DNA of 64,000 nucleotides from Candidatus Binatota bacterium (GCA_024276575.1 JAJRWY010000312.1:1161-65160), one strand, 5' to 3'. Shown: positions 13,298 to 48,904, counted from the stretch's first letter. Numbers and translations: made by a program. The notes: generated by a model not told the origin, from the letters alone.

Positions 13298-13300
13298 GAA

Positions 13301-14131: not shown

Positions 14132-14143
14132 GGAAGCCGGGTA

Positions 14144-15418
14144 GTGTCACGCCAACTATCGATACTGGGGCTGAATCACCGCACTGCGCCGGTCGAGCTG
14201 CGCGAGAAGCTGGCCATGACCGAAGGCCGCGGCGAAGGCGTGCTCGCGTCTCTTCTTACTCACGACCACATAGAGGAAGTGGTGTTGCTCTCCACCTGCA
14301 ATCGGGTCGAGATTGTCTACTGCAGCCGCGAAGGTCCGATTGAGACTGAGGAGATGACCGGCTTCCTAGTCGAGGGCACCGGGCTGAGTGTGGATGAATG
14401 CGTGCCTTACCTTTACAGTTTCGAGAACCGGGAAGCGGTCAGGCATCTGTTCCGTGTGGCCTCTAGCCTGGACTCCATGGTTGTGGGCGAGCCGCAGATC
14501 CTCGGCCAAATGAAGGAGCAGTTTGACGCGTCGGTGGACGCGCATAGTGCCGGTCCTGTACTTCACCGTGTCTTTCACAAGAGTTTCTCGGTGGCCAAGC
14601 GGGTGCGTTCGGAAACCGGAATCGCCTCGAGAACGGTTTCGGTCGCCTCCACGGCGGTGGATCTGGCCAGTCATATCTTCGAGAGCCTGGAGGGCCGGAC
14701 CGTGCTGCTGATCGGCGCCGGCGACATGGGGGAGACTGCCGCGCGCCATTTCCAGGGCGCGGGGGTCAAGGACATCATGGTGGCCAACCGCACTTTTGAA
14801 AACGGCGTAGCCCTGGCCAGGGAGTTGGGAGGGACGCCGATTCCGCTCGAGCGCCTGTCCAACTACTTGCCGCTCGCCGACCTAGTGGTGGGTTCAGCCG
14901 GGGGTGGGGAGATGCTCAGCGCCAAGGAGGTCAAGGGCCTCATGCGTGAGCGCAAGGGCCGTGCGGTATTCTTCATAGATGTCGCGGTTCCCCGCAACTT
15001 CGATCCTGCGATAAACAAGATCGACGGCGCTTATCTTTACGACATGGACGACCTCTCGTCGGTGGTAGAGGAGAACCTCGAGGAAAGGCAGCGTGAGGCG
15101 GTAAAAGGCGAGGCCATAGTGGAGGGGGAGGTCGACCATTTCTGGTTGTGGTTCGAGAAACTCGGGGTAATTCCCACGATCGTTGCTTTGCGTGAGTATG
15201 CCGAGGAGATTCGCAATCAAGAACTGGAGCGTACCGTTGCCAAGCTCAACGGCATCAGCGAGGAAGACAGGATACGTATAGACCATATGACTCGTTCTAT
15301 CGTCAATAAACTACTGCATAGGCCGACCAGCGTATTGAAACGTGAAGTTCGCCCGGATGAAGAAACTCGTATGTTGAGCGCGGTTCGCAAGCTTTTTTCC
15401 TTGGAGGACGAACTGTGA
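14144..15418 (+). CDS. hemA: Glutamyl-tRNA reductase
   Basis: N-terminal SILGLNHRTAPVELRE, catalytic Cys in LSTCNRVE, and NADPH-binding LLIGAGDMGE. Confidence 0.93.
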   Translation: MSRQLSILGLNHRTAPVELREKLAMTEGRGEGVLASLLTHDHIEEVVLLSTCNRVEIVYCSREGPIETEEMTGFLVEGTGLSVDECVPYLYSFENREAVRHLFRVASSLDSMVVGEPQILGQMKEQFDASVDAHSAGPVLHRVFHKSFSVAKRVRSETGIASRTVSVASTAVDLASHIFESLEGRTVLLIGAGDMGETAARHFQGAGVKDIMVANRTFENGVALARELGGTPIPLERLSNYLPLADLVVGSAGGGEMLSAKEVKGLMRERKGRAVFFIDVAVPRNFDPAINKIDGAYLYDMDDLSSVVEENLEERQREAVKGEAIVEGEVDHFWLWFEKLGVIPTIVALREYAEEIRNQELERTVAKLNGISEEDRIRIDHMTRSIVNKLLHRPTSVLKREVRPDEETRMLSAVRKLFSLEDEL

Positions 15419-16359
15419 AGCTTCGTGTGGGTACGCGGAGGAGCCCCCTTGCCTTGGCCCAGGCCGGCCAAGGTATGCGCTCGGTAGTGGACAAGGCCGG
15501 GGGCGGTGAGTGGGAGTTGATTGAGATGGTCACTACCGGTGACCGCGTTCAGGACCGTCCGTTGCGCGACGTCGGAGGTAAGGCCCTGTTCGTGCGTGAG
15601 CTTGACGATGCCCTGCTGCGTGGAGATGTCGATTGCGCCATTCATTCGCTGAAAGATGTCCCCAGCGATTTGCCGGCCGGCATCGTAATTGCCGCAGTGC
15701 TCGAACGTGCCGACGTGCGTGATCTGTTGATCAGCAAACGGGGCCTGGCGCCGGCGGAGCTTGCGCCGGGGGCGCTGGTCGGCACCACTAGTTTGAGGCG
15801 TGCATCGCAACTGCTGGCCGTAAACCCGCAGGTGAAAGTCGAAACCATACGAGGCAATGTAGCCACGCGCTTGGGGCGCTTGATGGATGGGGATTTCGAC
15901 GCGACCTTTTTGGCTGCTGCGGGTATCGCGCGGCTCGGTGCCGACCTCGGAGCGGCAAAAGCCCTAGCATTAGATCCTTGGGAGTTTATTCCTGCTCCCG
16001 GGCAGGGGGCGCTGGCCATTACTGCACGTGAAGACGACCGGAAATGCAGGGATTATCTGGCTATGGCCGAGGATGGGGCGGCGCGTGCGGCGGTTGAGGC
16101 GGAGCGCGCGCTGGCGAGAGTTTTCGGCGGCGGTTGCCATCTGCCCATCGGCGTCTATGCCGAGGCCGGGCCGGGCAGCTTAAGGATGATCGCGGTCGTG
16201 GTTTCATCTGATGGGCGCCGTTTGCTGCGCGACGAGGCTTCAGGCGAGGCTAGTCACGCGGCTGCCGTGGGTGAGGCTTTAGGCCGGCGTATGCTGGAAA
16301 ACGGCGGTGCTGAGATCGTTGCCGAAGCGGAAGCGGCTGCAGCTGGGGGGCTGGTCTGA
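15415..16359 (+). CDS. hemC: Hydroxymethylbilane synthase (porphobilinogen deaminase)
   Basis: RVGTRRSPLALAQA N-terminus and the cofactor-binding Cys region GGCHLPIG. The GTG start overlaps the hemA stop (GTGA). Confidence 0.92.
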   Translation: MKLRVGTRRSPLALAQAGQGMRSVVDKAGGGEWELIEMVTTGDRVQDRPLRDVGGKALFVRELDDALLRGDVDCAIHSLKDVPSDLPAGIVIAAVLERADVRDLLISKRGLAPAELAPGALVGTTSLRRASQLLAVNPQVKVETIRGNVATRLGRLMDGDFDATFLAAAGIARLGADLGAAKALALDPWEFIPAPGQGALAITAREDDRKCRDYLAMAEDGAARAAVEAERALARVFGGGCHLPIGVYAEAGPGSLRMIAVVVSSDGRRLLRDEASGEASHAAAVGEALGRRMLENGGAEIVAEAEAAAAGGLV

Positions 16360-16376
16360 GCGGGCGGGTCTATCTT

Positions 16377-17852
16377 GTGGGTGCGGGGCCCGGAGATCCC
16401 GGCCTGCTGACTCTTCGCGGGAAAGAGGCCCTCGAGCGGGCTGATGTAGTCCTCTATTACGCGCTAGCGAACTCCCGCCTGCTCGATTTTGCCCCCGCCG
16501 GGGCTGAACGCATACTCGTCGGACATCGCCACGGTCAGGAGACGGTCGGGCAGAACAGCATCGAGGAGATGCTGGTGGACTACGCTCGACGCGGTAAGAG
16601 CGTGGTTCGGTTGAAGGGCGGAGACCCCTTTGTATTTGGCCGGGGCGCGGAAGAAGCCCAGGCTTGTGCGATTGCGGGGGTGCCATTTTCGGTGATACCC
16701 GGCGTGAGTTCGGCCTCGGCCGCTCCCGCCTATGCAGGCATAGCCCTGACCCACCGTGACCTGTCTTCTTCGTACACAGTGGTGACCGGCCGTCCGGGAC
16801 GCAACCGGGACGGTGAAGAGGTAGAGGCCGACTGGGAATCTTTGGCGCGAGGTGGCGGTACTTTGGTACTGCTGATGGCGATGACGCGAATCTCAGAGAT
16901 CTCCGCGAAGCTAATCGGTGCCGGTATGTCTGCGGAAACTCCTGCGGCTGCGGGTCGCTGGGGAACTCTGCCCCGGCAAAAGACAGTGACCGGATGTCTC
17001 GGAGATATTGCGAATACGGCCGCCGCGGAGTTGATACGGCCGCCGGTGGTTTTCGTGATAGGAGACGTGGTGCGGCTCGCTGAAAGCATCTACTGGTACG
17101 AGAAACTGCCACTGTTCGGGCGTCGCATCGTGGTCACCCGCGCCCGCCATCAAGCTGCGGAATTTTCGCGTCGTCTGGAGGAATCCGGTGCCTGGGTGCT
17201 CGAGTATCCGACCATAGAGATCCGGCGGCTCGAGATAGCCGATAGCCGTCTGGACGAGGTTGCGGGTGCGGATTGGCTCTTGTTCAGCAGTGTCAACGGG
17301 GTCGAGCATTTCTTCGCGAGTTATCTCGCAGCCGGGCGTGACCTGCGCGAGCTTGCCGGCGTAGGAATTGCCGCTATCGGACCGGCCACCGCCGCGGCGG
17401 TGAAGCGGCGTGGCCTGAAGGTGGACGTGCAGCCTTTAGAGTATCGAGCGGAGGCCTTGCTCGAAGCCTTGGGGGAAGTCCGCGGAATGCGGATGATACT
17501 GGCGCGGGCCAAGGTGGCTCGTGAGGTGCTGCCCGAACAGCTCCGGGCGCGCGGCGCCGAAGTCACGGTGCTTCCGGTCTACCAGACCGTGGTGCCGCCT
17601 GATTCTTCGCAGTTCACGGAGTTCGGCGAAGTCGACATGGTTACTTTTACCAGCGCGAGTACCGTAGGGAACTTCGACCGTATAAACGGAGGACGGGCCG
17701 CCGAACTCCTGGCCGGAGTCAAGGTCGCGGCGATCGGACCGATTACCGCTGCGGCTCTCAGGGACAAGGGTATTGGGGTCGACGCCATGCCGCACGATTA
17801 TACGATTCCCGCGCTAGCCGCCGAGATAGAGCGCTGCTTTGCAAATGGCTAA
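16377..17852 (+). CDS. cobA-hemD: Bifunctional uroporphyrinogen-III C-methyltransferase / uroporphyrinogen-III synthase (CobA-HemD fusion); true start probably upstream and non-canonical
   Basis: The SUMT N-terminus [12 protein letters not shown] and the conserved [12 protein letters not shown] motif continue in-frame upstream of the first GTG with no stop, overlapping the hemC stop. The C-terminal half is HemD-like. Confidence 0.85.
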
Positions 17853-17875
17853 GCGCTAAACTAGCATTTTGCATC

Positions 17876-18844
17876 ATGCCTTTTCCTGAGCAACGGCCTC
17901 GAAGACTACGTCGCAACGAAACCATACGCCGTATGGTTCGCGAAACTTCTGTGGGTAGCGACGATCTCATGCTGCCGCTTTTCGTGGTTCCTGGTAGCAG
18001 CGTGGAAAATGAAGTGGCTTCGATGCCCGGAGTGTTTCAGCAATCGGTCGATAAAGTGGTGGAGACCGCCAGGCGTGCCGCCGGTCTCGGAATTCCCGCG
18101 GTGCTGCTGTTCGGTATTCCTGAGCACAAGGACCCGCGGGGCAGCGAAGCCTGGCGACGGGACGGAGTCGTGCAGAACGCTGTGCGGGCGATCAAGGAGG
18201 CGGTCCCGGAGCTATGTGTAACGACCGATGTCTGTCTTTGCGAGTATACCGACCACGGGCACTGTGGAGTACTATCCGGCGATAGTGTCGACAATGACGA
18301 AACCTGCGAGCTATTGGTTGCCGAAGCGGTTTCTCACGCCGAAGCAGGAGCCGATCTCATCGCGCCTTCGGATATGATGGATGGACGTGTGGACGCGATC
18401 AGGGAAGGACTCGACGACAAAGGTTTCGAGGAGATTCCGATAATGTCTTATGCCGCCAAGTACTGTTCGGGTTTTTATGGACCCTTCCGGGACGCGGCGG
18501 AGTCGGCTCCGCGCTTCGGCGACCGGCGCTCATACCAGATGGACCCGTCCAACTCCGACGAAGCGTTGCTCGAGGTCGAGCTTGATATCGAGGAAGGCGC
18601 CGACATTCTGATGGTGAAACCGGCGATGCCTTACCTCGACATAATCCGCCGGGTCAAGGACGAGTTTCAACGTCCACTGGCCGCCTACCAGGTCAGCGGT
18701 GAGTTCGCGATGATAAAAGCGGCGGCGGCGAGGGGATGGCTTGATGAGCCGCGTGTGGTTGCCGAAAGCCTGACTGCGATAAAGCGTGCGGGGGCGGACA
18801 TCATAATTAGTTATTTCGCGTTGGATTTCGCGAAGGGGGTTTGA
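17876..18844 (+). CDS. hemB: Porphobilinogen synthase (delta-aminolevulinate dehydratase)
   Basis: Active-site region with Cys residues [14 protein letters not shown] (a Zn-type site) and the Schiff-base Lys region. Confidence 0.93.
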
Positions 18845-31397: not shown

Positions 31398-31703
31398 ATG
31401 TGGCCTTTCGACAATAGCTTCTATGAGGAAATATCGGCTCGGTTCGAAACTCTGCTCAAGGACGGTGAGGACGCCGGAAATACCAATGATCTGTCGGCTT
31501 TGCTTGCTCCGGTGGATCCTTTCAACCGTTCACCCTTGTTTACACCGGTCGTGAAAGCTCTGGGCGTCGCTGCGTTGGTAGCAATGACCGGGCTTGCCGC
31601 AGCCGGTTTAGTCGTGGCCTTCGTTGCTTTCCTCGGTCTTTACTTCTTGCTTACCGAAGTATTCGGTTACGAGCTTTCTCTGGCACCGCTGCAACCGATG
31701 TAG
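31398..31703 (+). CDS. Small hypothetical membrane protein (C-terminal TM helix)
   Basis: 101-aa ORF 5 nt after the preceding gene, with a hydrophobic C-terminus ALGVAALVAMTGLAAAGLVVAFVAFLGLYFLL. Confidence 0.45.
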   Translation: MWPFDNSFYEEISARFETLLKDGEDAGNTNDLSALLAPVDPFNRSPLFTPVVKALGVAALVAMTGLAAAGLVVAFVAFLGLYFLLTEVFGYELSLAPLQPM

Positions 31704-32332
31704 ATTGCGTCTTGCCGTACGGCGAGACCGAGTATTAGAGCACAGGCGACGGCTGCCGCATCGCATGCCGCCACCGCGTGCCGCCACTGGCGCAGGTGCT
31801 TGTCGTAGCCACCGGCCTGCCGGCTGCGGTCTGAATAACGCGCGGGGAAATCGAGACCGGATGGTCCGTGATCTTGCGTTCGACGGTGGCTTGGCAAGGC
31901 GCCGTAGTTACGACAATCGCTAAACAGATCAGGAAGCGGTGCCTGTGGATGCACTCCGCAAACGAAACCGCAACCACCGCCATCCGGCTCAAAAGTGTAC
32001 CATACAATCGGTACCGAAGTTTTGCGGGCATGTTCGATTTGGTTCAGATCCGAATGCTCGACTCCCGCTACTATGTAGCAGGCGATAGAAGTGGATGTTT
32101 GTGTAGCTTTGCGACCTCGTCCCCGGAGGCTTTCAATGCCTGGACCATCGCTGCGCGAGGATACGCTGACCCCCGCTGCTCTCAAGTAAAGGGATGCTTG
32201 TTCCACGCCGCGAGGGTGCCCGAGCAGTACCACTGTCGCCGCCAGTAACTTTCCCTGGCCTTCCGCACCGATGCCGGGGATGATGATCTGTCGCGCATAG
32301 CGTTCAATGCTCTCATCATCGAGAGTAGCCAT
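31667..32332 (-). CDS. Degenerate ThiF/MoeB-like (E1-like) protein that retains the N-terminal RYxRQ...GxEGQxKL motif but lacks the GxGxxG loop; possible pseudogene or accessory subunit
   Basis: The N-terminus ERYARQIIIPGIGAEGQGKLLAATVVLLG matches E1 enzymes. It is followed by HPRGVEQASLYLRAAGV instead of GxGxxG...ALYLAGAGV. The downstream sequence is diverged, AT-richer, and has a poor RBS. Confidence 0.4.
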   Translation of the reverse strand: MATLDDESIERYARQIIIPGIGAEGQGKLLAATVVLLGHPRGVEQASLYLRAAGVSVSSRSDGPGIESLRGRGRKATQTSTSIACYIVAGVEHSDLNQIEHARKTSVPIVWYTFEPDGGGCGFVCGVHPQAPLPDLFSDCRNYGALPSHRRTQDHGPSGLDFPARYSDRSRQAGGYDKHLRQWRHAVAACDAAAVACALILGLAVRQDAIYIGCSGARESS

Positions 32333-32359
32333 ATCGCTAGCGAGGTCGTAGAGCAGATC

Positions 32360-32599
32360 TCATTCTATGACGTTCTTCTCTATCGGCTCGACAGTGACGC
32401 CTTGCTCGGCGATCCATCGTACGGCCCGGTCAATCTCGTCTTGCTCACCTTCGAGTTCGAGAGCCATGATGCCCACATGCTCAGAAATCGAAGCACCGCG
32501 TATATTGGTGACCACGCGGAACTTGTGTCCGACGTGGTAAACGATCGGCTCCTTTATCTTCTCTTGGCTGTAGGTCAGGTAGAAACGTTGAAGTGTCAT
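32360..32599 (-). CDS. Stand-alone NIL-domain protein (MetN C-terminal-like ferredoxin-fold domain)
   Basis: 79 aa with the TNIRGASISEHVGIMALELEG motif characteristic of NIL domains. The ATG overlaps the cysM-like stop (ATGA) with a GAGGAG SD. Confidence 0.6.
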   Translation of the reverse strand: MTLQRFYLTYSQEKIKEPIVYHVGHKFRVVTNIRGASISEHVGIMALELEGEQDEIDRAVRWIAEQGVTVEPIEKNVIE

Positions 32600-33579
32600 T
32601 GGTTCTCCTCCGCGGCGGCGAGTTCATGGCGGTCGCGCCAGCCGGTCCACAGATTCGTAGATAAGTAGCGGTCGCCAAAATCGGGTAGCACTACCACCAC
32701 GCACCCGGATTGCAACTCCGCAGCCACTTCCAGTGCTGCGACTACCGCGGCACCGGAGGACTGTCCGACCAGCAGACCTTCTTTGGCGGCCAACTCGTAA
32801 ACCATCTCGTAAGCGGCATCGGTAGCCACACCCACCTTGCGGTCGAAGCCGGATTCGTCGTAAATACCCGGCACGATCGAGCTGCCCATGTGCTTCAAGC
32901 CTTCTATCCCGTGGAAGGCGTCGTCGGGCTCCACGGCTATTATTTCGACCTCAGGCTTGCGCGATCTCAAGTAGCGGCCGCAGCCCATTACGGTTCCGCT
33001 GGTACCGATCGTGGCGAGAAAGTGAGAGACGCGGCCGGCAGTTTGCTCCCAGATCTCGGGTCCTGTGGTCAGGAAGTGGGCCTCCGGATTGGCCGGGTTG
33101 TAGTACTGGTCGGGTTTGAAGTACGCGTCGGGATCGGCGTCGAACATCTTTTTGGCCAAGACGATGGAGCCGTCGGACCCTTCCATCGGATCGGACTCGA
33201 CTATTTCGGCGCCGTAAGCCGCAATCACCCGCAATCGTTCGCGTGAGGCGTTGGCGGGTATCACTAATTTTACCGGATATCCCAGCGCAGCGCCGATCAT
33301 CGCCAGCGCGATGCCGGTGTTGCCGGAAGTAGAATCGAGAATGGTTTTGCCGGGGCGTAAGTGTCCGTCTTCCAATCCACGACGCACCATGTTCCAGGCC
33401 GGGCGGTCTTTGACCGAACCGCCGGGGTTGAAGCCCTCGACTTTGGCGTACACTTCTACACCGCCGGCCAAGTGCGGGGTTACACCTCGCAGTTGGAGCA
33501 ACGGTGTGTCGCCGATCAAGTCGAGTATGCCTGTGGCCTCCGCCTCATTAAGGGTCGGCTGTTGGCGAGTCCGGTGCAC
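32596..33579 (-). CDS. cysM: Cysteine synthase-family PLP enzyme (CysK/CysM type; candidate thiocarboxylate-dependent O-phosphoserine sulfhydrylase)
   Basis: ILDLIGDTPLLQL and the PLP-Lys motif KVEGFNPGGSVKDR, plus the glycine-rich TSGNTG loop. The GTG start overlaps the tail of the upstream carrier gene. Confidence 0.85.
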   Translation of the reverse strand: MHRTRQQPTLNEAEATGILDLIGDTPLLQLRGVTPHLAGGVEVYAKVEGFNPGGSVKDRPAWNMVRRGLEDGHLRPGKTILDSTSGNTGIALAMIGAALGYPVKLVIPANASRERLRVIAAYGAEIVESDPMEGSDGSIVLAKKMFDADPDAYFKPDQYYNPANPEAHFLTTGPEIWEQTAGRVSHFLATIGTSGTVMGCGRYLRSRKPEVEIIAVEPDDAFHGIEGLKHMGSSIVPGIYDESGFDRKVGVATDAAYEMVYELAAKEGLLVGQSSGAAVVAALEVAAELQSGCVVVVLPDFGDRYLSTNLWTGWRDRHELAAAEENQ

Positions 33580-33854
33580 GCGCCGCCGGCGATAGCGGGA
33601 ACGATGGAGATTTCGTCGCCGTCTTTGACGGCGGACTCCAGGTCATCAAGAAAGCGAATGTCATCGCCGTTCACGTAAACATTTACGAAACGCCGTACTG
33701 AACCGTCGCGTTCGCAGATGCGCTCCTTGAGGCCTGGATGGGCTGCCTCGACGCTGTCGAGAACCGCGGCCACGGTCGAGCCTTCTGCGTCGACGGCTTC
33801 GTTGCCGCCTGTAAACTTTCTCAGGGGTGTGGGGATTCTTACCCGGACTGCCAT
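33516..33854 (-). CDS. MoaD/ThiS-family sulfur-carrier protein (CysO/MetO-like) with a 21-residue extension after the Gly-Gly
   Basis: MAVRVRIPTPLRKFTGG...VNGDDIRFLDDLESAVKDGDEISIVPAIAGG (GG at residues 90-91), followed in-frame by ACTGLANSRPLMRRRPQAYST before the stop. Strong SD TAGGAGGAAC upstream of the ATG at 33852-33854. Confidence 0.7.
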   Translation of the reverse strand: MAVRVRIPTPLRKFTGGNEAVDAEGSTVAAVLDSVEAAHPGLKERICERDGSVRRFVNVYVNGDDIRFLDDLESAVKDGDEISIVPAIAGGACTGLANSRPLMRRRPQAYST

Positions 33855-33891
33855 GTTGTAGTTCCTCCTAAGTCGAATTCCGCCGATCCTA

Positions 33892-35184
33892 TCACGAACC
33901 GGTGGCCGGAGAAGCAATCGTGGAAGCCTGATCGCCGCCGGCTGTCTTGCCGGCTTCAAGACGCTCGTAAAGACGGTCGAATTCGTCGAGACGTGCTGCG
34001 ATATCGTGGGTGACCGGAACCGAATCACGAACCGCCTCGAGGGTCTTGTAGCCGTTGCCGGTAATAGAGATGACGATCGACTCATCTCGGGGTATGCGGC
34101 CTTGCTCTATGAGTTTCTTGGTAACCGCCACCGTGGTGCCCCCGGCCGGCTCGGTAAACACACCTTCCGTACGCGCCAGTAGTTTGATTGCTTCCACTAT
34201 TTCTTCGTCGCTAGCTGATTCACCCCATCCTCCGGAATCCCTGACCGCTCCGAGAACGTAATAGCCGTCGGCCGGGTTGCCGATCGCGATCGACTTGGCG
34301 ATGGTATGAGGCTTTACCGGTTCGATAAGGTCGGTTCCCCGGTGAAGGGCGTTGACGACCGGAGCGCAACCGGCGGCTTGCGCGGAGTATATCTTGAATC
34401 CGCTCTGCTCGACCAAGCCTACCCGCTGCAGCTCTTCAAAGGACTTGGCGACTTTGGGCAAGATGGTGCCGCCGGCGGTAGGAACGACGATGTGTTGGGG
34501 GAGCTTCCAGCCGAGTTGTTCGGCCACTTCGAATCCGTAAGTTTTGGCTCCTTCGGTGTAAAAAGGCCGCAGGTTGATGTTTGCGAAAGCCCAGCCGTAC
34601 TTGTCCGCGATCTCGGTGCACAGGCGGTTAACGTCGTCATAATTGCCGGAGATCGCGACCGGGACCGGGTTGTATATGGCCGATCCCACCACCTTGCCTT
34701 GTTCGAGGTTGTCGGGGATGAAGATGAAGCACCGCAGGCCGGCGCGTGCTGCATGGGCGGAAACGGAATTGGCTAGGTTGCCGGTAGAGGCGCATGCGAC
34801 GGTTTCGAAGCCGAACTCGACCGCTTTGGTCAGCGCGACCGAGACTACGCGGTCCTTGTAGGAGAAGGTCGGGTGGTTGACCGAATCGTCTTTTACGTAG
34901 AGTTCCGAGACGCCGAGCACTTCTGCCAAGCGATCGGCTTTGAGCAAGGGAGTAAAACCTGAATACAGGCCGATACGCGGCTCGGACTCCACCGGAAGCA
35001 ACTCGCGATATCTCCACAGGTTGGGTGGCCTCGCTTCAATGGTCTTGCGATCGACCGCAGCCGATATCTTGTCATAGTCGTATTCTACTTCGAGGGGGCC
35101 AAAGCAGTATTCACAGACGTGGTAGGGCTTGAGTTCGTAAGCCTCGCCACATTCACGGCACTTGAGGCCTTTTACAAAAGACAT
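33892..35184 (-). CDS. Threonine synthase-family PLP enzyme with an N-terminal zinc ribbon (ThrC, or a MetM-like O-phosphohomoserine-dependent homocysteine synthase)
   Basis: N-terminus CRECGE...CEYCFG and the PLP-Lys motif HPTFSYKDR. AAGGAGAT SD before the ATG at 35182-35184. The track ORF's 47-aa N-terminal extension was rejected. Confidence 0.8.
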   Translation of the reverse strand: MSFVKGLKCRECGEAYELKPYHVCEYCFGPLEVEYDYDKISAAVDRKTIEARPPNLWRYRELLPVESEPRIGLYSGFTPLLKADRLAEVLGVSELYVKDDSVNHPTFSYKDRVVSVALTKAVEFGFETVACASTGNLANSVSAHAARAGLRCFIFIPDNLEQGKVVGSAIYNPVPVAISGNYDDVNRLCTEIADKYGWAFANINLRPFYTEGAKTYGFEVAEQLGWKLPQHIVVPTAGGTILPKVAKSFEELQRVGLVEQSGFKIYSAQAAGCAPVVNALHRGTDLIEPVKPHTIAKSIAIGNPADGYYVLGAVRDSGGWGESASDEEIVEAIKLLARTEGVFTEPAGGTTVAVTKKLIEQGRIPRDESIVISITGNGYKTLEAVRDSVPVTHDIAARLDEFDRLYERLEAGKTAGGDQASTIASPATGS

Positions 35185-35198
35185 GGTAGTTATCTCCT

Positions 35199-35957
35199 TC
35201 AGCGGTCGATGCCGGGCGCTGCAGCGGCGGGCTCGTAACCGCGGGGTCGTGAACGGGTTTCCCCCGAGCGGGAGCATCGCGGGCAAGCGGGATCCCTGGG
35301 GAAATATACATGGCGCCAACGGCACCCTGACAATTCATAGATATTCATGCGGCCGGGACACAGGCTTTTGTCTCCACCAAGGTAACGAAGCGCGTCTTGC
35401 GCTTGTGCGGTTCCCACCAAGCCGGCCACTGGTGCGAGAATGCCCATAGCTGAACAGCCGCCGTCGGCTTCCTGCGGGTGGTCGTCGGGGAAAGCGCATG
35501 CGAGGCAGGCCGACACGCCCGGCACCACGGTCATCCATTGGCCGGTGGTTCTGATCACACCGCCGTAACAGAAAGCGGTGCCGGTCGAGACTGCAACGGC
35601 GTTTATCATGAATTTCGTGGCCGGGTCGTCACAAGCGTCGATCACGAAATCATGAGAGGAAACGAGGCTCTCGGCGTTGCCGGTGTTCAACGTATCTTCG
35701 ATGGGACGAATTTCAGTGGTAACAGGGCCGCCGGCGGATGCGGCTAGAGCCTTACGCGCGGCCTCGGCCTTGGGTGCTCCGACGTCGCTGTCGCCGAACA
35801 AGACCTGCCGCTGCAGGTTCGAAAGCTCGATGCGGTCGGGGTCGATAATCGTGAGTTTGGCAACTCCGGCGCCCACGAGCATGCGCGCGGCAGCGCAACC
35901 GAGGGCGCCGACGCCCACCAACAGAACCGAATCTTTTGTTTGCTGCTGCAAGTACAA
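35199..35957 (-). CDS. ThiF/MoeB/MoeZ-type E1-like sulfur-carrier-protein adenylyltransferase
   Basis: VLLVGVGALGCAAARMLVGAGV (GxGxxG), DPDRIELSNLQRQ, and zinc motifs CxxC...CxxC. Only a TTG start at 35955-35957 is available, and it abuts the riboswitch terminator U-tract. Confidence 0.8.
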   Translation of the reverse strand: MYLQQQTKDSVLLVGVGALGCAAARMLVGAGVAKLTIIDPDRIELSNLQRQVLFGDSDVGAPKAEAARKALAASAGGPVTTEIRPIEDTLNTGNAESLVSSHDFVIDACDDPATKFMINAVAVSTGTAFCYGGVIRTTGQWMTVVPGVSACLACAFPDDHPQEADGGCSAMGILAPVAGLVGTAQAQDALRYLGGDKSLCPGRMNIYELSGCRWRHVYFPRDPACPRCSRSGETRSRPRGYEPAAAAPGIDR

Positions 35958-35989
35958 AAAAACCTCTTCCAGGCGGGATAAGGAAGAGG
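35956..35989 (-). terminator. Intrinsic terminator hairpin forming the expression platform of the SAM-I riboswitch
   Basis: On the minus strand, CCUCUUCC-UUAUCCCGCCU-GGAAGAGG followed by UUUUUUU. The 3' stem arm GGAAGAGG doubles as a putative SD for the thiF-like TTG. Confidence 0.7.
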
Positions 35990-36011
35990 TACTGGGTCGC
36001 GGCGACAGGCC

Positions 36012-36168
36012 TCTCCTTATCTTTCACCCTCTTTGCATTTGCGTGAACTCGATTACGCGCTCACCGCAACGCTAAGGTGCGGGACTTAGCACCTGCCGCC
36101 CGCTTGCGCAGGCCGGTTGCTGTGGCTTCACAGGGCCCATTCCCTCCGCCACTCTGAATAAGGAACGG
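36012..36168 (-). promoter_or_regulatory. SAM-I (S-box) riboswitch aptamer
   Basis: The minus-strand RNA reads UUCCUUAUUCAGAGUGGCGGAGGGAAUGGGCCCUGUGAAGCCACAGCAACC...CAGGUGCUAAGUCCCGCA...GAAAGAUAAGGAGAGG. This matches the S-box consensus CUUAUCAAGAGNGGYGGAGGGAYUGGCCCNAUGAARCCCRGCAACC...GGUGCYAAUUCCNGC...GAGAUAAG, including P1 pairing CUUAU/AUAAG. Confidence 0.8.
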
Positions 36169-36169
36169 A

Positions 36170-36201
36170 AAGGGTAGCGGCACTAGGCCTCACTGTCAAA
36201 A
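36170..36201 (-). promoter_or_regulatory. Putative sigma-70-type promoter driving the riboswitch and sulfur-carrier operon
   Basis: On the minus strand, TTGACA, then a 17-nt spacer, then TACCCT about 7 nt upstream of the riboswitch 5' end. Confidence 0.4.
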
Positions 36202-37245: not shown

Positions 37246-37947
37246 CTATAGCGATCCGCTTGGTCCCGAGTCCTCTTGCACCGCAAGAGGACTCGCACTC
37301 CCGCGCAATTCAGCGAGCTTGCGCTGTGCCTCGAGCGCGCTCTCGCTGTCCGGGTAGGTGTCGAGAACATACGAGTAGCGCGCCATCGCCGCTTCCTTGC
37401 GGTCGTGTTCCAGATAATAGTCGCCGACGTAGAGCTCATGCCTAGCGAGATGCTCGATGCTCTGCCGTAGCCGGAAGCTGGCTAGTGTAGAGTAGATGGA
37501 ATCGGGATACCTTTGCAGCAGGCGCTCGAACTGTCGTTTGGCCTGGGCAGAAGCCGAAGTGTCACGGTCTCCGTCAAGCGCCCGGTCGAGGTGGCACATT
37601 CCCACAGTGTATTCCACGAAAGGAAGGCGGTCGCTGACCGGGTAGAGCCTCTCGAAGTCGTTGAAAGCCGCGATGGCCTTCTCGTATTGGGCGGTTAGGT
37701 AGTAAGCCTGCGCGATCTTGATGCTGGCGCTCTCAGCGTATTCAGAGAAGGGGAACTGCTCGAGCAACTCTTCATAGTTACCGATGGCTTGAATGTAATT
37801 GCGGTGTTCGAAATAACGCGAAGCTTCGTCTTCCAGCTCGTCCTCGGTGAGTGGGGCGGGCGCCCCGCAAGCCGAGATCAGTATAAGGGTGGAGACTATG
37901 AGCAGGGCGCTTCGGTAGCGCCGCAATATGTGCTTAGGGCCGTTCAT
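37246..37947 (-). CDS. bamD: BamD/YfiO-like TPR lipoprotein (outer-membrane protein assembly factor-like)
   Basis: Lipoprotein signal LILISAC followed by TPR-like repeats with typical BamD spacing. The track ORF's 72-aa N-terminal extension was rejected. Confidence 0.6.
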   Translation of the reverse strand: MNGPKHILRRYRSALLIVSTLILISACGAPAPLTEDELEDEASRYFEHRNYIQAIGNYEELLEQFPFSEYAESASIKIAQAYYLTAQYEKAIAAFNDFERLYPVSDRLPFVEYTVGMCHLDRALDGDRDTSASAQAKRQFERLLQRYPDSIYSTLASFRLRQSIEHLARHELYVGDYYLEHDRKEAAMARYSYVLDTYPDSESALEAQRKLAELRGSASPLAVQEDSGPSGSL

Positions 37948-37985
37948 ACTTGTGTAAAGCTTAGCGATGTTACGCTGCCCGGTCC

Positions 37986-38015
37986 ACAGCAACCGTGGGC
38001 ACAGCAACCGTGGGC
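37986..38015. repeat. Perfect 15-bp tandem duplication (ACAGCAACCGTGGGC x2) in a divergent intergenic region
   Basis: Read directly from the sequence, between bamD-like (minus) and arsA-like (plus). Confidence 0.9.
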
Positions 38016-38129
38016 AAGAGTCCGCGGGCTGGTGTCCGGCGCTTCTTCGAGACGGTGTCTCCGGCAGGATCGGTGGCGGCCTGTTCGGCAGTGTATCGTT
38101 GCATGGTCCACAAGACAGCAAGGGGACGC

Positions 38130-38161
38130 CGGCAAGCCTGCAACCGGCAAGGCAAGCCTGC
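38130..38161. repeat. Direct repeat GGCAAGCCTGCA x2 (about 8-nt spacing) in the leader of the arsA-like gene
   Basis: Read directly from the sequence, about 70 nt upstream of the predicted start at 38230. Confidence 0.8.
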
Positions 38162-38229
38162 ACACAGTGCGCTGGCCTGCATCCCGGTTGACCCGCGAAT
38201 GGGCAAGAAGTAAGGCCGGGAGTGTTTTG

Positions 38230-39198
38230 ATGAGCAAACGGCTGCAGTTCGTCGTCGGTAAGGGGGGAGTGGGCAAATCTACAGTGGCGGCCGCACTTGC
38301 CGTCGCTGCCGCCGGCCCTAACGAGCGGGTCTTACTACTGGAGTTGGGCGCGCCTGGAGGAGCCGCGCGATTGTTGTCTCCGGGTAAGCCCGGCCGGGGC
38401 CCGGTCGAAGTCCTCGACGGGCTCTATCTGGACTGCGTGGAAGGCGATGCTGCGCTGGCGGAGTACCTGGAGTTGGTCGTTCCCATACGCCGTCTTCTGC
38501 GTTTGGTTTTCGAGAGTAATCTTTACCGTAGTTTCGTCGCGGCAGCGCCAGGTCTCAAAGAGCTGATGACGATGGGAAAGATCTGGTTCGAAGCCGAGAG
38601 ACGCGATGCCGCCGGCAAGCCGCTATGGGATTGTATAGTGGTCGATGCCGGGGCATCCGGGCACAGTCTGAAGTACTTACAGATGCCGGCTACTGCCGCG
38701 GCGACCTTCAAATCGGGTTTGGTACATCGAGAGTCTCAACGCGTGGAAGCGCTACTCGAGGATCCATCGCTCTCGGTGGTGCACGTGGTCGCGTCTCCCG
38801 AAGACATGCCGCTGTTTGAAGCTGCCGAGATCGTCGAGAAACTCAACGGCCCTTTGTCGATGCCGTTCGGAAAGTTGTTCGTCAACCGTTGCCGGGAGCG
38901 ACCGCCTGAAGGCGCCGGTACGGCTGTCGACAGCTTGCGGCGGTTTACCCCACTTCCCGAGCAGCGGGCCTTGCGTGACGCTGTCGTCGATGCCGCGGCA
39001 TCCTGCCTGGGCTGGTACCGGGTGCAAGAGCGCGGTATCGCGGCGGTCGAGGACCGCCTAGGTCTGCGGGTCTGCAGGCTTCCCTTGCAGCAGAGCGAAG
39101 AATTCGGCTTAGCCGAGTTACGCCTGCTGGCTTCACTGGTCAAGGACGCGGTGCAGGACCCCGGGGGCACTAGCGACTCCCGCGACGAGGTTTCATGA
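38230..39198 (+). CDS. ArsA/GET3-family P-loop ATPase, divergent paralogue (first of a tandem pair)
   Basis: P-loop VVGKGGVGKST and A-loop-like DAGASGHSL. It lacks the canonical DPA motif (LLELGAPGG in its place). The track ORF's upstream extension was rejected. Confidence 0.75.
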   Translation: MSKRLQFVVGKGGVGKSTVAAALAVAAAGPNERVLLLELGAPGGAARLLSPGKPGRGPVEVLDGLYLDCVEGDAALAEYLELVVPIRRLLRLVFESNLYRSFVAAAPGLKELMTMGKIWFEAERRDAAGKPLWDCIVVDAGASGHSLKYLQMPATAAATFKSGLVHRESQRVEALLEDPSLSVVHVVASPEDMPLFEAAEIVEKLNGPLSMPFGKLFVNRCRERPPEGAGTAVDSLRRFTPLPEQRALRDAVVDAAASCLGWYRVQERGIAAVEDRLGLRVCRLPLQQSEEFGLAELRLLASLVKDAVQDPGGTSDSRDEVS

Positions 39199-39299
39199 AT
39201 AATGCGGGATAAGGAACATCCCCGCGATGCTATGACCGAGCATGACATTGTCGGGGCGGTAGAAGAACCGGCTGCAGGTGTATTGGAGGACTCTAGCGA

Positions 39300-40436
39300 G
39301 TGAGCTTGGCGCAACTACTTGATGGCCACCGGGTGGTTGTTTGTGTGGGAACCGGCGGCGTGGGCAAGACCACAGTTTCGGCGTCGCTCGCACTGCACGC
39401 AGCGATGCAAGGCCGCCGCGCGATGGTTCTGACCATCGATCCAGCCCAGCGCCTGGCACAATCGCTGGGTTTGGACACCCTGCGGTCGGGCGGAGAAGTG
39501 ATCCCCGAACGGCTCGTGCACGAAGCTGGACTCGAACTGCCGGGCGAGCTGAGCGCGGGAATGCTGGACCAGAAAAGCGCCTGGGATGATTTCATAGGAC
39601 GTCATGCTCCCAACTCCGAGATTCGCAATGCCATTTTGGACAACGACTTCTATTTGCACTTGTCGCAATCGTTTGCGGGATCGGTGGAATACATGGCTAT
39701 CGAGGAGCTTTGCCGGGTCGAGGAGTCGAACGATTATGATCTCATCGTGCTCGACACCCCCCCTACGGGCCATGCCCTGGACTTCCTAGAAGCTCCGGCG
39801 CGGCTCGAGGCTTTTCTGGACCGCAATGTGGTCAGTTGGTTGGTCAAGCCCTATGTGTCCGTGGGCTGGTCTGCGTGGAAAGGCGGGAGCAGGACAGTGC
39901 AGTTTCTATTGCAAAAGATAGAAGATGCTACGGGGCTACAGACCCTTTCCGACGTATCCAAATTTTTCATTGCCATGGAAGAGTTGTTCGACGGCATCGC
40001 CGATCGAAGCCGCAAGGTGAGGGCCCTGTTGCGAGGAGATTCTACCGCCTTCGTGCTCGTCGCCGCTTGCGAGGAGCAGGTCCTCGGGGAAGCGGAGGAT
40101 CTGACCGCTAAGATGGAGAAGCTCGGAGTCAGCTTGAAAGCGGTAGTTATGAACCGCGTGCATCTGTCGCCGGCCGTAGACGCCGAGGTCTCAGCCGATG
40201 CTGTGTCTGATTTGCTGGAGCGGGCATCTGTGGCCGGAGCGGACCCCGCGTTAGCCGGTTGGTTGCGGCAAACTTTCTCGAACGCATACCGTACGGCGCT
40301 TGCCGAAGCAGTCAGACGCGAGGCTTTCGAAGCTGAATTGCCTAGCGGTGTCGTCAGCGCAGCGATTCCCGAAATGCCGCACGACGTGCATGATCTTCGA
40401 GCTCTTGCTGTGATCGCCTCTTATTTGTCGGCGTGA
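39300..40436 (+). CDS. ArsA/GET3-family P-loop ATPase, canonical (second of the tandem pair)
   Basis: P-loop GTGGVGKTT, TIDPAQRLAQSLG (DPA) and DTPPTGHALDFL (DTAPTGH-type) motifs. Confidence 0.85.
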   Translation: MSLAQLLDGHRVVVCVGTGGVGKTTVSASLALHAAMQGRRAMVLTIDPAQRLAQSLGLDTLRSGGEVIPERLVHEAGLELPGELSAGMLDQKSAWDDFIGRHAPNSEIRNAILDNDFYLHLSQSFAGSVEYMAIEELCRVEESNDYDLIVLDTPPTGHALDFLEAPARLEAFLDRNVVSWLVKPYVSVGWSAWKGGSRTVQFLLQKIEDATGLQTLSDVSKFFIAMEELFDGIADRSRKVRALLRGDSTAFVLVAACEEQVLGEAEDLTAKMEKLGVSLKAVVMNRVHLSPAVDAEVSADAVSDLLERASVAGADPALAGWLRQTFSNAYRTALAEAVRREAFEAELPSGVVSAAIPEMPHDVHDLRALAVIASYLSA

Positions 40437-47078: not shown

Positions 47079-47849
47079 TTGCCAAGGCCGGCTGTTGCGG
47101 GTTTGGAAGGAACTATGAGCATGGGAGCCGCTAGATTGCGAGAAACGGTTGTGAAAGAGGTTCCATCCTATATTTTCGCGAAGGAGCCGGTCGAGGGACG
47201 GGTCAAAACCCGCTTGTGTCCACCGCTAAGCCCACAGCAAGCCGCACGCTGCCACCTTGCCTTCGTCTCGGATATCGTTACGCGTACGGCGAAGCTCGAT
47301 GGTGCGGCCGTCCACCTTGCCTGTTCTCCCGATGGGGCAAGCCCGGTGTTGGCTCGGCTGGCCGGAGAGGCGGGCGTTGAACTGGTGGCCCAAGGCGAGG
47401 GTGATCTTGGTGAGCGCATGGGCCGGGCGCTGCAGCGGTCGGTGGGAGATTCCGGCGCTGGGTTGATCCTGGGCGCCGATGTGCCCGATCTTCCATTGGG
47501 TGTTCTGGAGCGCGCTCTGTGGCAGGTCAGCACAGGCGGTAGCGACGTAGTGTTGGGGCCGGCTGAAGACGGAGGATACTACTTGATCGGCGCCCGTTGC
47601 GAGGTGCCGGGGCTTTTCGATATCGAAGCTGAATGGGGTGGCAGCGGCGTTCTCGAGGCGACCGTGCGTAGGATCGAAAATGCGGGGGCTTCTTTTGCAT
47701 TGCTCCCGCGCTGGTGCGACGTAGACTCATACGGGGATCTAGTGCGCTTGGCCGGGCGTTTGCGTGGCACTGCGCCGGGTGCGCAAACGGACAGCCGGGC
47801 TACGCGCAAGCTGCTTGGGGAATTGGTTGCCGAAGGAGTCTCGCTCTGA
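47079..47849 (+). CDS. DUF2064-family protein (MobA/CofC-like GT-A nucleotidyltransferase fold)
   Basis: YIFAKEPVEGRVKTRLCPPL N-terminal motif and LGADVPDL...GPAEDGGYYLIG, typical of DUF2064/TIGR04282-type proteins. Confidence 0.6.
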   Translation: MPRPAVAGLEGTMSMGAARLRETVVKEVPSYIFAKEPVEGRVKTRLCPPLSPQQAARCHLAFVSDIVTRTAKLDGAAVHLACSPDGASPVLARLAGEAGVELVAQGEGDLGERMGRALQRSVGDSGAGLILGADVPDLPLGVLERALWQVSTGGSDVVLGPAEDGGYYLIGARCEVPGLFDIEAEWGGSGVLEATVRRIENAGASFALLPRWCDVDSYGDLVRLAGRLRGTAPGAQTDSRATRKLLGELVAEGVSL

Positions 47850-48904
47850 GGCGTATCGCAGTCTTTCGCTGGGACATCGACAAGACCTACCTCGATTCGG
47901 ACTTCGAGTCGTTGCGCGCACTGATGCGTGTGCCATTTGAAAAAGGCCGCGATAAAGTGGCGCTGCCGGGTGTGGTGGAACTGATAAAGGGATTGCGCAC
48001 GACTGCCTCGAAGCAGGGGCGCGACAGCCGTCTCTTCTTCATCACCGCGTCACCTCCGCAGATCGGGACAGCCATTCGCGACAAGCTCGAGCTTGATGGT
48101 ATCGACTACGATGGTATCGGCTTCAAAAACCAGTTCCGCCATTTGATGCGCGGAGACTTCGGAGCCTTACGCGAGCAACTTGGCTATAAGCTCAGTGAAC
48201 TGCTCGGCGGCCTCGCGCAGATCCCTCCGGGATCCCGGGAATACCTGTTCGGTGATGACTGGGAGTCGGATCCTTTCGTGTATTCGCTCTATGCCGACAT
48301 CGTGGACGGCCGCGTCGGCGCGGGCCGGGTCCTGAGTTTGCTCGAGAAAGCGGGTGTGGAGGATCTTTACGTATCCAAGGTCGAGAGGTTCCTGGCGCTT
48401 CGTGAGGATCGCGGACATCGCGTTGGCGGGATCTATATTTTGCGCCAGCGCATGCGCCGGGCCGAGGAACTCGAGTGTTTCGGCCGCCGCTTGTCTTGGT
48501 TCGATGACTATTTCGAAGCGGCGCTCTTGCTCCATTGTGAACGGCTGCTGTCGTCCGAGGCGGTTTGTGAGATTGCCGCCGCCACGCGGTTCGGGCCTGC
48601 GCACTTGAGCGCTTGCTTAGAGGGGGTGGCTTCGGGCGGAAATCGCCGCAGTTTCAAGGTACCGGCGTCGTTGCGACGACAGCTATTTGGCGCCGGCTTG
48701 CTGGAACCCAGCTCCGGGGCCGGGCCGGTCGCTGCCTTCTTCGCCCCGGCGCTGCAGTCATGTAGACGGGCGCTGAACGCCTTGCGAGCAGCCGGTGCAG
48801 TGCCCGCCTACGAGCGTTTGCTCCCGACTTGGTCGAAGCGTGCCAAACGTGGTGCCGAGTCGGAGCTGGGAGAGAAGCATGAAAGTCGAGAAGCCGCAGA
48901 ATGA
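47714..48904 (+). CDS. HAD-superfamily hydrolase-like protein with a C-terminal extension; start uncertain (conserved part begins about 47846)
   Basis: HAD motif I WDIDKTYLD (DxDxT) and motif IV LFGDDWESD. The first canonical start at 47714 overlaps the upstream gene by 136 nt. Confidence 0.5.
   Translation: MRRRLIRGSSALGRAFAWHCAGCANGQPGYAQAAWGIGCRRSLALRRIAVFRWDIDKTYLDSDFESLRALMRVPFEKGRDKVALPGVVELIKGLRTTASKQGRDSRLFFITASPPQIGTAIRDKLELDGIDYDGIGFKNQFRHLMRGDFGALREQLGYKLSELLGGLAQIPPGSREYLFGDDWESDPFVYSLYADIVDGRVGAGRVLSLLEKAGVEDLYVSKVERFLALREDRGHRVGGIYILRQRMRRAEELECFGRRLSWFDDYFEAALLLHCERLLSSEAVCEIAAATRFGPAHLSACLEGVASGGNRRSFKVPASLRRQLFGAGLLEPSSGAGPVAAFFAPALQSCRRALNALRAAGAVPAYERLLPTWSKRAKRGAESELGEKHESREAAE

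Follow-up and report, generated by a model that had tools for sequence, protein, structure and literature searches.

What does an operon make that places a threonine synthase-like enzyme and a sulfur-carrier protein under the control of S-adenosylmethionine (SAM), and why does it contain two E1-type genes? We addressed this for a 64,000-nucleotide stretch of a Candidatus Binatota bacterium genome (GCA_024276575.1 JAJRWY010000312.1:1161-65160; henceforth the window), in which six co-directional genes lie directly behind a SAM-I riboswitch. An earlier note on this DNA had interpreted them as an operon for sulfur amino acid synthesis from a protein thiocarboxylate. This interpretation is supported, and each in-silico check proposed with it that was run favored it. 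Taken as a whole, we read the locus with fair confidence as a SAM-off operon for sulfur incorporation in the methionine branch, with an E1 that is split between two genes. The product is most likely homocysteine, and probably also cysteine, with a sulfur-carrier protein as the source of sulfur.

The riboswitch-controlled operon

The regulatory elements and genes are as follows, in the order of transcription. PLP stands for pyridoxal 5'-phosphate.

36014..36164, minus strand: SAM-I riboswitch aptamer (S-box); Rfam RF00162, 75.8 bits (gathering score 44.4), E 5.5e-16, full model (1-108)
~35956..35990, minus strand: expression platform, an intrinsic terminator with a 9-bp stem, an 11-nt loop and U7, called from sequence and fold
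35199..35957, minus strand: E1a, catalytic ThiF/MoeB-type adenylyltransferase, 252 aa; ThiF PF00899, 204 bits
33892..35184, minus strand: ThrC-like PLP enzyme, ATG start, 430 aa; PALP 216 bits, PRK08197 312.6, TIGR00260 281
33516..33854, minus strand: CysO/MetO-like carrier (beta-grasp), 112 aa; ThiS PF02597 66.7 bits, NCBIfam SAMP1 67.6 (cutoff 60)
32596..33579, minus strand: CysM-like fold-type-II PLP enzyme, 327 aa; PALP 235 bits, TIGR01138 361.5 (cutoff 394)
32360..32599, minus strand: free-standing NIL protein, 79 aa; PF09383 55.3 bits (gathering score 24)
31667..32332, minus strand: E1b, an E1-like open reading frame (ORF), 221 aa; no Pfam match, residues 3-56 match MoeB/MoeZ N-termini

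All the elements described in the earlier note are thus present on the minus strand behind the riboswitch, and profile searches showed that its five domain identities (ThiF/MoeB E1, ThrC family, MoaD/ThiS carrier, CysM type and NIL) were correct. The genes are closely packed. Gaps of 14 nt and 37 nt separate E1a from the ThrC-like gene and the ThrC-like gene from the carrier gene, the carrier and CysM-like genes overlap by 64 nt, the CysM-like and NIL genes share a 4-nt ATGA overlap, and E1b follows NIL after 27 nt. The tight spacing that had been reported therefore holds, but the reported type of junction does not hold throughout, since three junctions are gaps and the GTGA found in relatives is GTGC here. 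A consensus terminator scan reported no more internal terminator-like sites in the operon than expected by chance. The start of E1a is ambiguous (TTG at 35957 or TTG at 35951); the conclusions are the same with either.

The leader looks like a classical S-box "off" switch, because it combines a terminator, a buried Shine-Dalgarno-like sequence and complementarity between P1 and a terminator arm. The terminator arms read ACCUCUUCC (5') and GGAAGAGGU (3'), on either side of the 11-nt loop and followed by U7, and the hairpin is present in both the minimum free energy fold and the centroid fold. The consensus terminator scan did not report this hairpin because its 11-nt loop exceeds the 8-nt loop limit of the scan. 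The 3' arm (GGAAGAGG) is the sole Shine-Dalgarno-like sequence ahead of the E1a gene, and the TTG start at 35957 shares bases with the U-tract. An antiterminator would presumably form by pairing of the P1 3' strand (GAUAAGGAGAGG) with the 5' arm of the terminator and the start of its loop (CCUCUUCCUUAUC), to which this strand is nearly complementary.

We surveyed 84 related loci by tblastn with the six window proteins. The loci of the ThrC-like relatives come overwhelmingly from metagenome-assembled genomes (MAGs) of Candidatus Binatia (68-87% identity), many of which are labelled "Deltaproteobacteria" in older records; across Binatia, the ThrC-like protein is 70-87% identical. The usual gene order is E1, ThrC-like, carrier, CysM-like, NIL and second E1. 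It is repeated in ~60 independent metagenome-assembled loci and is therefore not due to chance. The closest relatives also have the same flanks, namely polA, an extracytoplasmic function (ECF) sigma/anti-sigma pair, a Y_phosphatase3 gene, bamD and arsA-like genes. When the window aptamer was used to seed an nhmmer profile, 69 of the 85 sequences searched (the 84 loci and the window) had a homologous aptamer ahead of the operon. The Rfam covariance model confirmed the riboswitch in all nine of the positive loci sampled (73.8-97.1 bits), as it did in the window (75.8 versus 44.4 bits), which bears out the riboswitch named in the earlier note.

Loci that depart from the usual order reveal the linkage among the genes. 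Four Binatia loci (L026, L030, L043 and L062) contain only E1a, the ThrC-like gene, the carrier and E1b, without riboswitch, CysM-like or NIL genes. Two Latescibacterota loci (L048 and L054; 6754-12016) have a SAM-I riboswitch followed by ThrC-like, CysM-like, JAB peptidase, carrier, NIL and second CysM-like genes, with no E1. A Planctomycetota locus (L079) is limited to riboswitch, ThrC-like, carrier and NIL. Another locus (L027) encodes CysM-like, ThrC-like, carrier and CysM-like proteins and a JAB-NIL fusion, then adenosine 5'-phosphosulfate (APS) kinase (7175-7795). On the basis of these variants, the ThrC-like gene and the carrier gene are the invariant core. The four reduced Binatia loci also show that E1b travels with E1a and the carrier rather than with the CysM-like and NIL genes.

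Apparent carrier-CysM and carrier-NIL fusions were rejected as the tblastn alignments read through stop codons. Two further features of individual loci are recorded here. In L020, L032 and L033 (~8.3-10.8 kb), which are part of a clade with a full-length E1, an opposite-strand 2.5-kb subtilase/He_PIG gene lies between the ThrC-like and carrier genes. In L001-L004, fluoride-related crcB and a DUF190 gene are found downstream of the second E1; they are not at that position in the window.

The ThrC-like enzyme, the carrier and the product

In Streptomyces albulus, the ThrC homologue MetM converts O-phosphohomoserine and the thiocarboxylate of the carrier MetO to homocysteine; a SAM riboswitch lies upstream, and Mec and MoeZ are required (Hasebe et al. 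2024, Appl Environ Microbiol 90:e01247-24, PMC11497804, as relayed by GapMind 2026 and mSystems 2025). The earlier note had likened the window genes to this pair. The likeness extends to the catalytic lysine of the ThrC-like protein, a carrier with Gly-Gly encoded 37 nt downstream and the SAM riboswitch upstream, all of which we found. The PLP lysine is kept in a SYKDR motif that aligns to B. subtilis ThrC. Class-II threonine synthases in the PDB (B. subtilis, T. thermophilus, A. aeolicus and M. tuberculosis) align to the ThrC-like protein only from residue ~52 (~175-193 bits). The first ~50 residues are a four-cysteine zinc ribbon that is missing from those solved threonine synthases.

The ThrC-like protein could instead be an ordinary threonine synthase, and the operon a CysO/CysM-type cysteine pathway that includes thrC. 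Database names agree with this alternative. The protein scores above the cutoffs of two NCBIfam "threonine synthase" equivalog models (for PRK08197, 312.6 versus 303), and the relatives retrieved in one homologue search, all at least 76% identical, are all named "threonine synthase". The carrier and the CysM-like protein are moreover homologous to M. tuberculosis CysO and CysM, and threonine synthase activity is reported for a Microcystis protein that shares 51.6% identity with S. albulus MetM (mSystems 2025). Given this reported activity, the ThrC subfamily with the zinc ribbon is not made up of MetM proteins only; the function of the ThrC-like protein does not follow from its family, and MetM is not separable from true ThrC by sequence alone. 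The homocysteine reading instead rests on context, that is, on the carrier, the E1 and the SAM riboswitch.

The context argues against a threonine synthase in several ways. The four reduced Binatia loci keep E1a, the ThrC-like gene, the carrier and E1b without any CysM-like gene, and in other lineages the operon consists of riboswitch, ThrC-like gene and carrier only. SAM-off control of threonine synthesis would be physiologically illogical, and we know of no precedent for a SAM-off riboswitch on threonine synthesis. No other gene of the operon is as conserved as the ThrC-like gene, and in nearly every locus that is long enough, in Binatia and three other lineages, the carrier gene comes after it. 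Besides Binatia and Latescibacterota, the two genes are adjacent in one Planctomycetota MAG and in other lineages known from metagenomes, in most cases downstream of a SAM-I riboswitch. Such linkage to a carrier would not be expected of a housekeeping threonine synthase. In the window, Pfam annotation revealed no thrC, thrB or metX/Y elsewhere, only housekeeping genes.

A search of 1.84 billion representative proteins placed the nearest ThrC-like clusters outside Binatia at 47-55% identity. We fetched the genomic contexts of four clusters at 46-53% identity, with the following results.

P0300 (Micromonosporaceae; actinobacterial), 53% identity: SAM-I riboswitch (80.7 bits) directly upstream, no adjacent carrier
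P0146, 52% identity: SAM-I riboswitch (71.5 bits), ThrC-like gene and ThiS gene
P0299, 48% identity: ThiS gene next, no riboswitch found
P0310, 46% identity: beside leuS, no carrier and no riboswitch

The clusters checked at 48% identity or more were thus all linked to a riboswitch or a carrier, and the one at 46% was not. The repetition of riboswitch, ThrC-like gene and carrier in other lineages agrees with the methionine or homocysteine role that the earlier note had drawn from SAM control. We propose that the ThrC-like protein is a MetM-like homocysteine synthase acting on O-phosphohomoserine and the carrier thiocarboxylate. An ordinary threonine synthase in a cysteine operon is improbable in our judgment.

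The carrier is a near relative of CysO. Its best PDB match is 4n6e_B, a ThiS/MoaD family protein (full-length, 94 bits, 51% identity). With M. tuberculosis CysO (3dwg_C; 83.7 bits, residues 1-91 versus 1-93) it shares 48% identity. The full-length match to CysO, with a CysM-family gene adjoining, confirmed the resemblance to CysO/CysM that had been pointed out in the earlier note. The carrier, CysO and 4n6e_B all end in ...AGG, except that the window carrier continues from ...PAIAGG into a 21-residue tail. This tail arises because the change from GTGA to GTGC removes the stop codon, and it is read out of frame over the N-terminus of the CysM-like gene. In relatives, GTGA forms a stop/start overlap with the CysM-like gene; the corresponding site in the window (33516-33582) was compared with GCGTGACC in L001 and ACGTGAGC in L005. 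The lost stop may be a real substitution or an error in the MAG consensus.

Tails after Gly-Gly are usual in this family, and most carriers would therefore need C-terminal trimming. Among 72 unique carriers, 16 have no residue after Gly-Gly, 41 have one, 12 have 2-10 and 3 have >10; the tails in the two Latescibacterota loci L048 and L054 are 41 and 8 residues long. In known systems, carriers are trimmed by a JAMM peptidase (Mec, HcyD). A combined motif and Hidden Markov Model (HMM) search found no JAB/JAMM peptidase in the 64-kb window or within 7 kb in any Binatia locus. The same search found JAB peptidases only in L027, L048 and L054 among the surveyed loci.

Since the annotation of its best PDB match goes no further than the ThiS/MoaD family, the carrier might instead supply a thiocarboxylate that feeds another thio-metabolite, such as a cofactor or natural product. 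We take 4n6e to belong to an Amycolatopsis 2-thiosugar system. Operons with ThiS/MoaD, E1 and JAB genes are also known from siderophore pathways (cited literature). This explanation is hard to reconcile with SAM riboswitch control and with two PLP enzymes that both belong to amino acid families. The surroundings also lack biosynthetic tailoring genes and consist of housekeeping genes whose synteny is kept throughout the lineage. We consider it very improbable.

The CysM-like protein also keeps its PLP lysine (GGSVKDR). Its best PDB matches are the Salmonella and E. coli CysM proteins (242 bits), and it matches M. tuberculosis CysM (3dki/3dwg) with 199 bits in an alignment that runs through the C-terminal tail. 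We propose, as the least certain of these assignments, that it is a cysteine synthase dependent on the carrier thiocarboxylate.

Several observations, besides the Microcystis homologue, weigh against this account of the operon. Pfam searches of the 64-kb window found no JAMM peptidase, rhodanese or cysteine desulfurase, and two steps of the pathway would need genes located elsewhere. The CysM-like protein scores 361.5 bits, below the cysM equivalog cutoff of 394 (TIGR01138). Twelve loci with full flanks lack the riboswitch by the nhmmer profile, and none of the 10 rechecked with Rfam reached the gathering score. The ThrC-like cluster beside leuS lacks both carrier and riboswitch. With these points taken into account, we still regard a thiocarboxylate-dependent role of the operon in homocysteine synthesis as quite probable.

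The two E1 genes

In MoeB and ThiF, an N-terminal RYxRQ segment reaches the ATP site of the partner subunit. This part of the protein is missing from E1a. The PF00899 match of E1a begins only at profile position 20, its residues 5-229 align to E. coli MoeB 27-248, and nothing matches MoeB 1-26. No RYxRQ occurs in frame upstream of the E1a start, and a longer N-terminus is not possible because the in-frame upstream sequence is that of the riboswitch and terminator. E1a otherwise keeps GxGxxG, D62, R73, K86, D130, the C187 equivalent and two CxxC pairs (MoeB numbering). Pfam and NCBIfam models found no rhodanese domain on it.

The missing segment is found in E1b. Residues 1-58 of E1b align to MoeB 1-58 and Uba4 6-73, including an ERYARQ that corresponds to the region of MoeB Arg14, and the sequence is divergent beyond this point. 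An AlphaFold2 model of E1b (predicted local distance difference test score 77.7, predicted template modelling score 0.74) has ThiF, PaaA, MoeB and Uba4 as its best PDB folds, with SAE1 and APPBP1 lower in the list of matches. In 12 loci, the E1 is full-length and carries its own EQIERYSRQ segment. We compared the motifs of unique sequences of the three types (62 E1a, 12 full-length E1 and 53 E1b; MoeB numbering).

RYxRQ segment: E1a 0/62; full-length E1 12/12; E1b 53/53
P-loop third Gly: E1a 62/62; full-length E1 12/12; E1b 2/53
D62: E1a 62/62; full-length E1 12/12; E1b 8/53
R73: E1a 62/62; full-length E1 12/12; E1b 7/53
K86: E1a 62/62; full-length E1 12/12; E1b 1/53
D130: E1a 61/62; full-length E1 12/12; E1b 6/53
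C187: E1a 62/62; full-length E1 12/12; E1b 0/53
Zn cysteines: E1a 62/62; full-length E1 12/12; E1b 40-46/53

The earlier note had called E1b a degenerate E1-like ORF. This view has to be revised, since E1b is a conserved and selected partner gene rather than a product of decay. RYxRQ is kept in every E1b sequence, and ratios of nonsynonymous to synonymous substitution rates (dN/dS) of 0.14-0.36 between unsaturated pairs indicate purifying selection. We also rejected E1b as a frameshifted remnant of a normal E1, as the family is conserved, selected and consistent in architecture. About 20 homologues of 153-188 aa were found in the protein collection. E1a and the full-length E1 are orthologues (59-73% identity); E1b is a distant paralogue.

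The presence of E1b follows the length of the first E1. Where the sequence continued for 3.5 kb or more past the ThrC-like gene, E1b was present in 54 of 56 loci with a short E1 and in none of 9 with a full-length E1 (naive Fisher p = 1.7e-9). One locus (L015; 9902-10663, plus strand) has a second E1 with an intact ThiF domain (181 bits) and a GAGAVG P-loop beside an N-terminally short first E1, and this looks like an intermediate stage of the split.

Arginine fingers that reach over from the neighboring subunit have been described for ThiF (Arg11) and MoeB (Arg14). In the yeast Tcd1-Tcd2 heterodimer, Tcd1 Arg59 is supplied to the Tcd2 site, and Tcd2 holds the catalytic residues (cited literature). 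By analogy with these three arginines, the finger of E1b would act in trans at the E1a site, and we consider it moderately likely that E1a and E1b form an asymmetric heterodimeric E1.

Several points count against such a heterodimer. The full-length-E1 loci form a single clade in a neighbor-joining tree of the ThrC-like protein; the complementary pattern therefore represents one or two evolutionary events that were then maintained rather than 54 independent ones. E1b is not found within 7 kb in two short-E1 loci (L066 and L077), and another seven have it at a distance, 1-5 kb past NIL, which places it 2.3-6.1 kb downstream of the ThrC-like gene. The arginine finger is also reported to be catalytically non-essential in MoeB and ThiF (cited literature), and E1a need not depend on E1b if the finger is dispensable.

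These last points are the basis of a different explanation, in which E1a acts alone as a homodimer without need of the finger, and E1b is a relic paralogue with no role in carrier activation. E1b does evolve fast, with 35-48% identity within the short subfamily and lengths of 154-265 aa among correctly delimited sequences, and it is kilobases away in some loci. A relic would not be expected, however, to keep the R, R, Q, G and Q of the N-terminal segment in 53 of 53 sequences while the catalytic residues are lost, or to show the dN/dS values given above. It is exactly the clade with an N-terminally complete E1 that lacks E1b, and E1b stays in the operon while the ThrC-like protein diverges to ~70% identity. 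We consider the relic explanation unlikely.

E1b could alternatively be a scaffold that docks the sulfur donor or the PLP enzymes on the E1-carrier complex, as a stand-in for a rhodanese domain. The operon lacks such a domain, unlike the MoeZ/Uba4-type E1s, most E1b sequences keep the four Zn cysteines, and the short subfamily has extra cysteines (CWY, AACDAA). No cysteine beyond the Zn motif is common to all E1b, however, and MoeB and ThiF likewise lack a rhodanese domain and obtain sulfur from separate proteins. The distribution of conservation also speaks against docking as the main role. Apart from one CxxC, nearly all columns with at least 80% identity fall within the first ~55 residues, so that the conserved block is the N-terminal RYxRQ segment and the first beta-alpha-beta unit. 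A scaffold role seems improbable to us, and we retain the heterodimer as the preferred reading of the two E1 genes.

Proposed pathway and comparison with known systems

In the pathway that we propose, the steps of regulation, carrier activation and modularity draw on sequence evidence, and the enzyme chemistry on homology and gene context. At low SAM, the S-box antiterminator would form and the six genes would be transcribed; at high SAM, the terminator would form and bury the Shine-Dalgarno-like sequence. The carrier would be trimmed to its C-terminal Gly-Gly by a JAMM-type peptidase, presumably encoded elsewhere in Binatia and within the operon in Latescibacterota-type operons. The two-gene asymmetric E1 would then adenylate the carrier. 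E1a would contribute a complete ATP/Mg/adenylation site, the Zn site and the Cys187 equivalent, with the N-terminal helix missing. E1b, a dead E1 fold, would pair with E1a and lend it the RYxRQ segment. A persulfide or sulfide donor encoded outside the operon would turn the carrier adenylate into the thiocarboxylate.

From the thiocarboxylate (carrier-COSH) and O-phosphohomoserine, the ThrC-like enzyme would make homocysteine, probably via a carrier-homocysteine adduct, by analogy with Streptomyces MetM. The CysM-like enzyme would use the same carrier, as M. tuberculosis CysM does with CysO, and would form cysteine from O-phosphoserine or O-acetylserine; this is the least certain of the enzymatic steps. 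The CysM-like and NIL genes are an optional module, and E1a, the ThrC-like gene, the carrier and E1b form the core that does not vary.

The NIL protein is difficult to place in this pathway. A role as a persulfide relay was rejected, because the protein has no cysteine in its 79 aa and cannot carry a persulfide. The C-terminal domain of MetN (3dhx, E 0.0018; 3dhw; 3tui) was its sole meaningful match in the PDB. In L027 (6316-7101, plus strand), a single 261-aa protein contains Prok-JAB (residues 17-123) and NIL (residues 188-253), and in L048 the NIL gene follows the JAB and carrier genes. As our weakest inference, NIL may be a ligand-binding or recognition subunit at the methionine/homocysteine end of the pathway, which senses methionine or homocysteine or assists a JAMM peptidase that cleaves the adduct.

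The most specific form of our proposal combines three parts. The first is an obligate two-gene E1 whose dead paralogue chiefly supplies the finger, as an independent prokaryotic architecture resembling the SUMO and NEDD8 E1s with intermediates still extant, namely the full-length single E1 of one clade and the intact second ThiF of L015. The second is one carrier that feeds both a MetM-like and a CysM-like enzyme under one riboswitch, and the third is a NIL protein that senses ligand or recognizes the adduct. We put this combination forward tentatively, with slightly more doubt than confidence.

If the pathway is as proposed, widespread uncultured Binatia make homocysteine via a thiocarboxylate/O-phosphohomoserine route described only in 2024. 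The key enzyme would then be misnamed "threonine synthase" everywhere, and metabolic reconstructions would wrongly predict methionine auxotrophy or miscount thrC. The split E1 would provide a simple and genetically separable bacterial model for the evolution of homodimeric E1s into asymmetric heterodimers, in which a gene is duplicated and each copy loses what the other keeps. With it, the debated contribution of the arginine finger in MoeB/ThiF-type enzymes could be tested cleanly. The recurrent association with NIL, including the JAB-NIL fusion, would offer a handle on the role of NIL in homocysteine metabolism.

Other parts of the window contain features of separate interest.

55509-56780, plus strand: one ORF with a receiver domain (residues 5-115) and a full LpxC deacetylase (147-412), right after a HAMP/PAS histidine kinase gene (53279-55516); this suggests phosphorylation control of lipid A synthesis
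12578-18844, plus strand: tetrapyrrole cluster encoding a siroheme-synthase-like NAD-binding protein, a CcsA-like protein, HemA, HemC, a CobA/HemD fusion and HemB
37789-40436, plus strand: two consecutive ArsA-type ATPase genes, syntenic with related loci, in which one ArsA-type gene is visible at each fetched edge
47714-48904, plus strand: 396-aa ORF with no Pfam match at E <= 1e-5
56839-57639, minus strand: 266-aa ORF with no Pfam match at E <= 1e-5

We compared the operon with the systems it resembles. The core of riboswitch, ThrC-like enzyme and carrier is of the MetM/MetO kind already published in 2024. Both have a ThrC-family enzyme beside a ThiS/MoaD-type carrier behind a SAM riboswitch, and in both the carrier needs C-terminal maturation. 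Streptomyces, however, uses a shared MoeZ (E1 and rhodanese) and Mec, whereas the window operon has its own split E1 without rhodanese, a CysM-like enzyme and a NIL protein, and no JAMM gene nearby.

The CysO-CysM-Mec+-MoeZ system of M. tuberculosis, in which the CysM-CysO complex is known (3dwg), shares with the window the CysO-type carrier ending in ...AGG and the adjoining CysM-family gene. Gene order and partners differ, as the window has neither mec nor ClpS and does have a SAM riboswitch. In the window, a second sulfhydrylase of the ThrC family shares the carrier, and the CysM-like enzyme is nearer to enterobacterial CysM than to that of M. tuberculosis (242 versus 199 bits).

The HcyS/HcyF/HcyD/MetY system of Wolinella succinogenes resembles the window in having a dedicated E1, a residue after Gly-Gly and a thiocarboxylate that leads to homocysteine (Krishnamoorthy & Begley 2011). 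It differs in that MetY is a fold-type I enzyme acting on O-acetylhomoserine and the operon includes a JAMM gene (HcyD), whereas the window has a fold-type-II ThrC homologue and no JAMM gene in the operon. A 2006 catalogue of operons that combine ThiS/MoaD, E1-rhodanese, JAB and cysteine synthase genes includes no ThrC homologue among them.

The NIL domain (PF09383) is shared with the C-terminal domain of the methionine importer MetN, but in the window it is free-standing and without an ATPase. It is also shared with NIL-ferredoxin proteins, which are required in the unrelated DUF39 homocysteine pathway (Price et al. 2018); the window protein has neither a ferredoxin domain nor a cysteine. The literature that we searched contains no description of a NIL protein in a thiocarboxylate operon.

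The two E1 genes invite comparison with SAE1-SAE2, APPBP1-UBA3, Tcd1-Tcd2 and BilD, the last of which has its inactive and active adenylation domains (IAD and AAD) in one chain. Each of these pairs an active adenylation fold with an inactive fold that keeps the finger. In the window, by contrast, the two folds are small separate proteins for a sulfur carrier, without a catalytic-cysteine or ubiquitin-fold domain, and their pairing as a heterodimer is proposed. According to the 2023 structural paper on BilD, all known bacterial E1-like proteins apart from BilD are homodimers, and a two-gene asymmetric E1 for a sulfur carrier is not described in the literature searched. That literature likewise contains no report of the complete gene set, in agreement with the earlier note, and databases name the central enzyme plain "threonine synthase". 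What is new is a probable lineage-wide, self-contained route of the MetM/MetO kind, to which the proposed split E1 and the CysM-like and NIL proteins are added.

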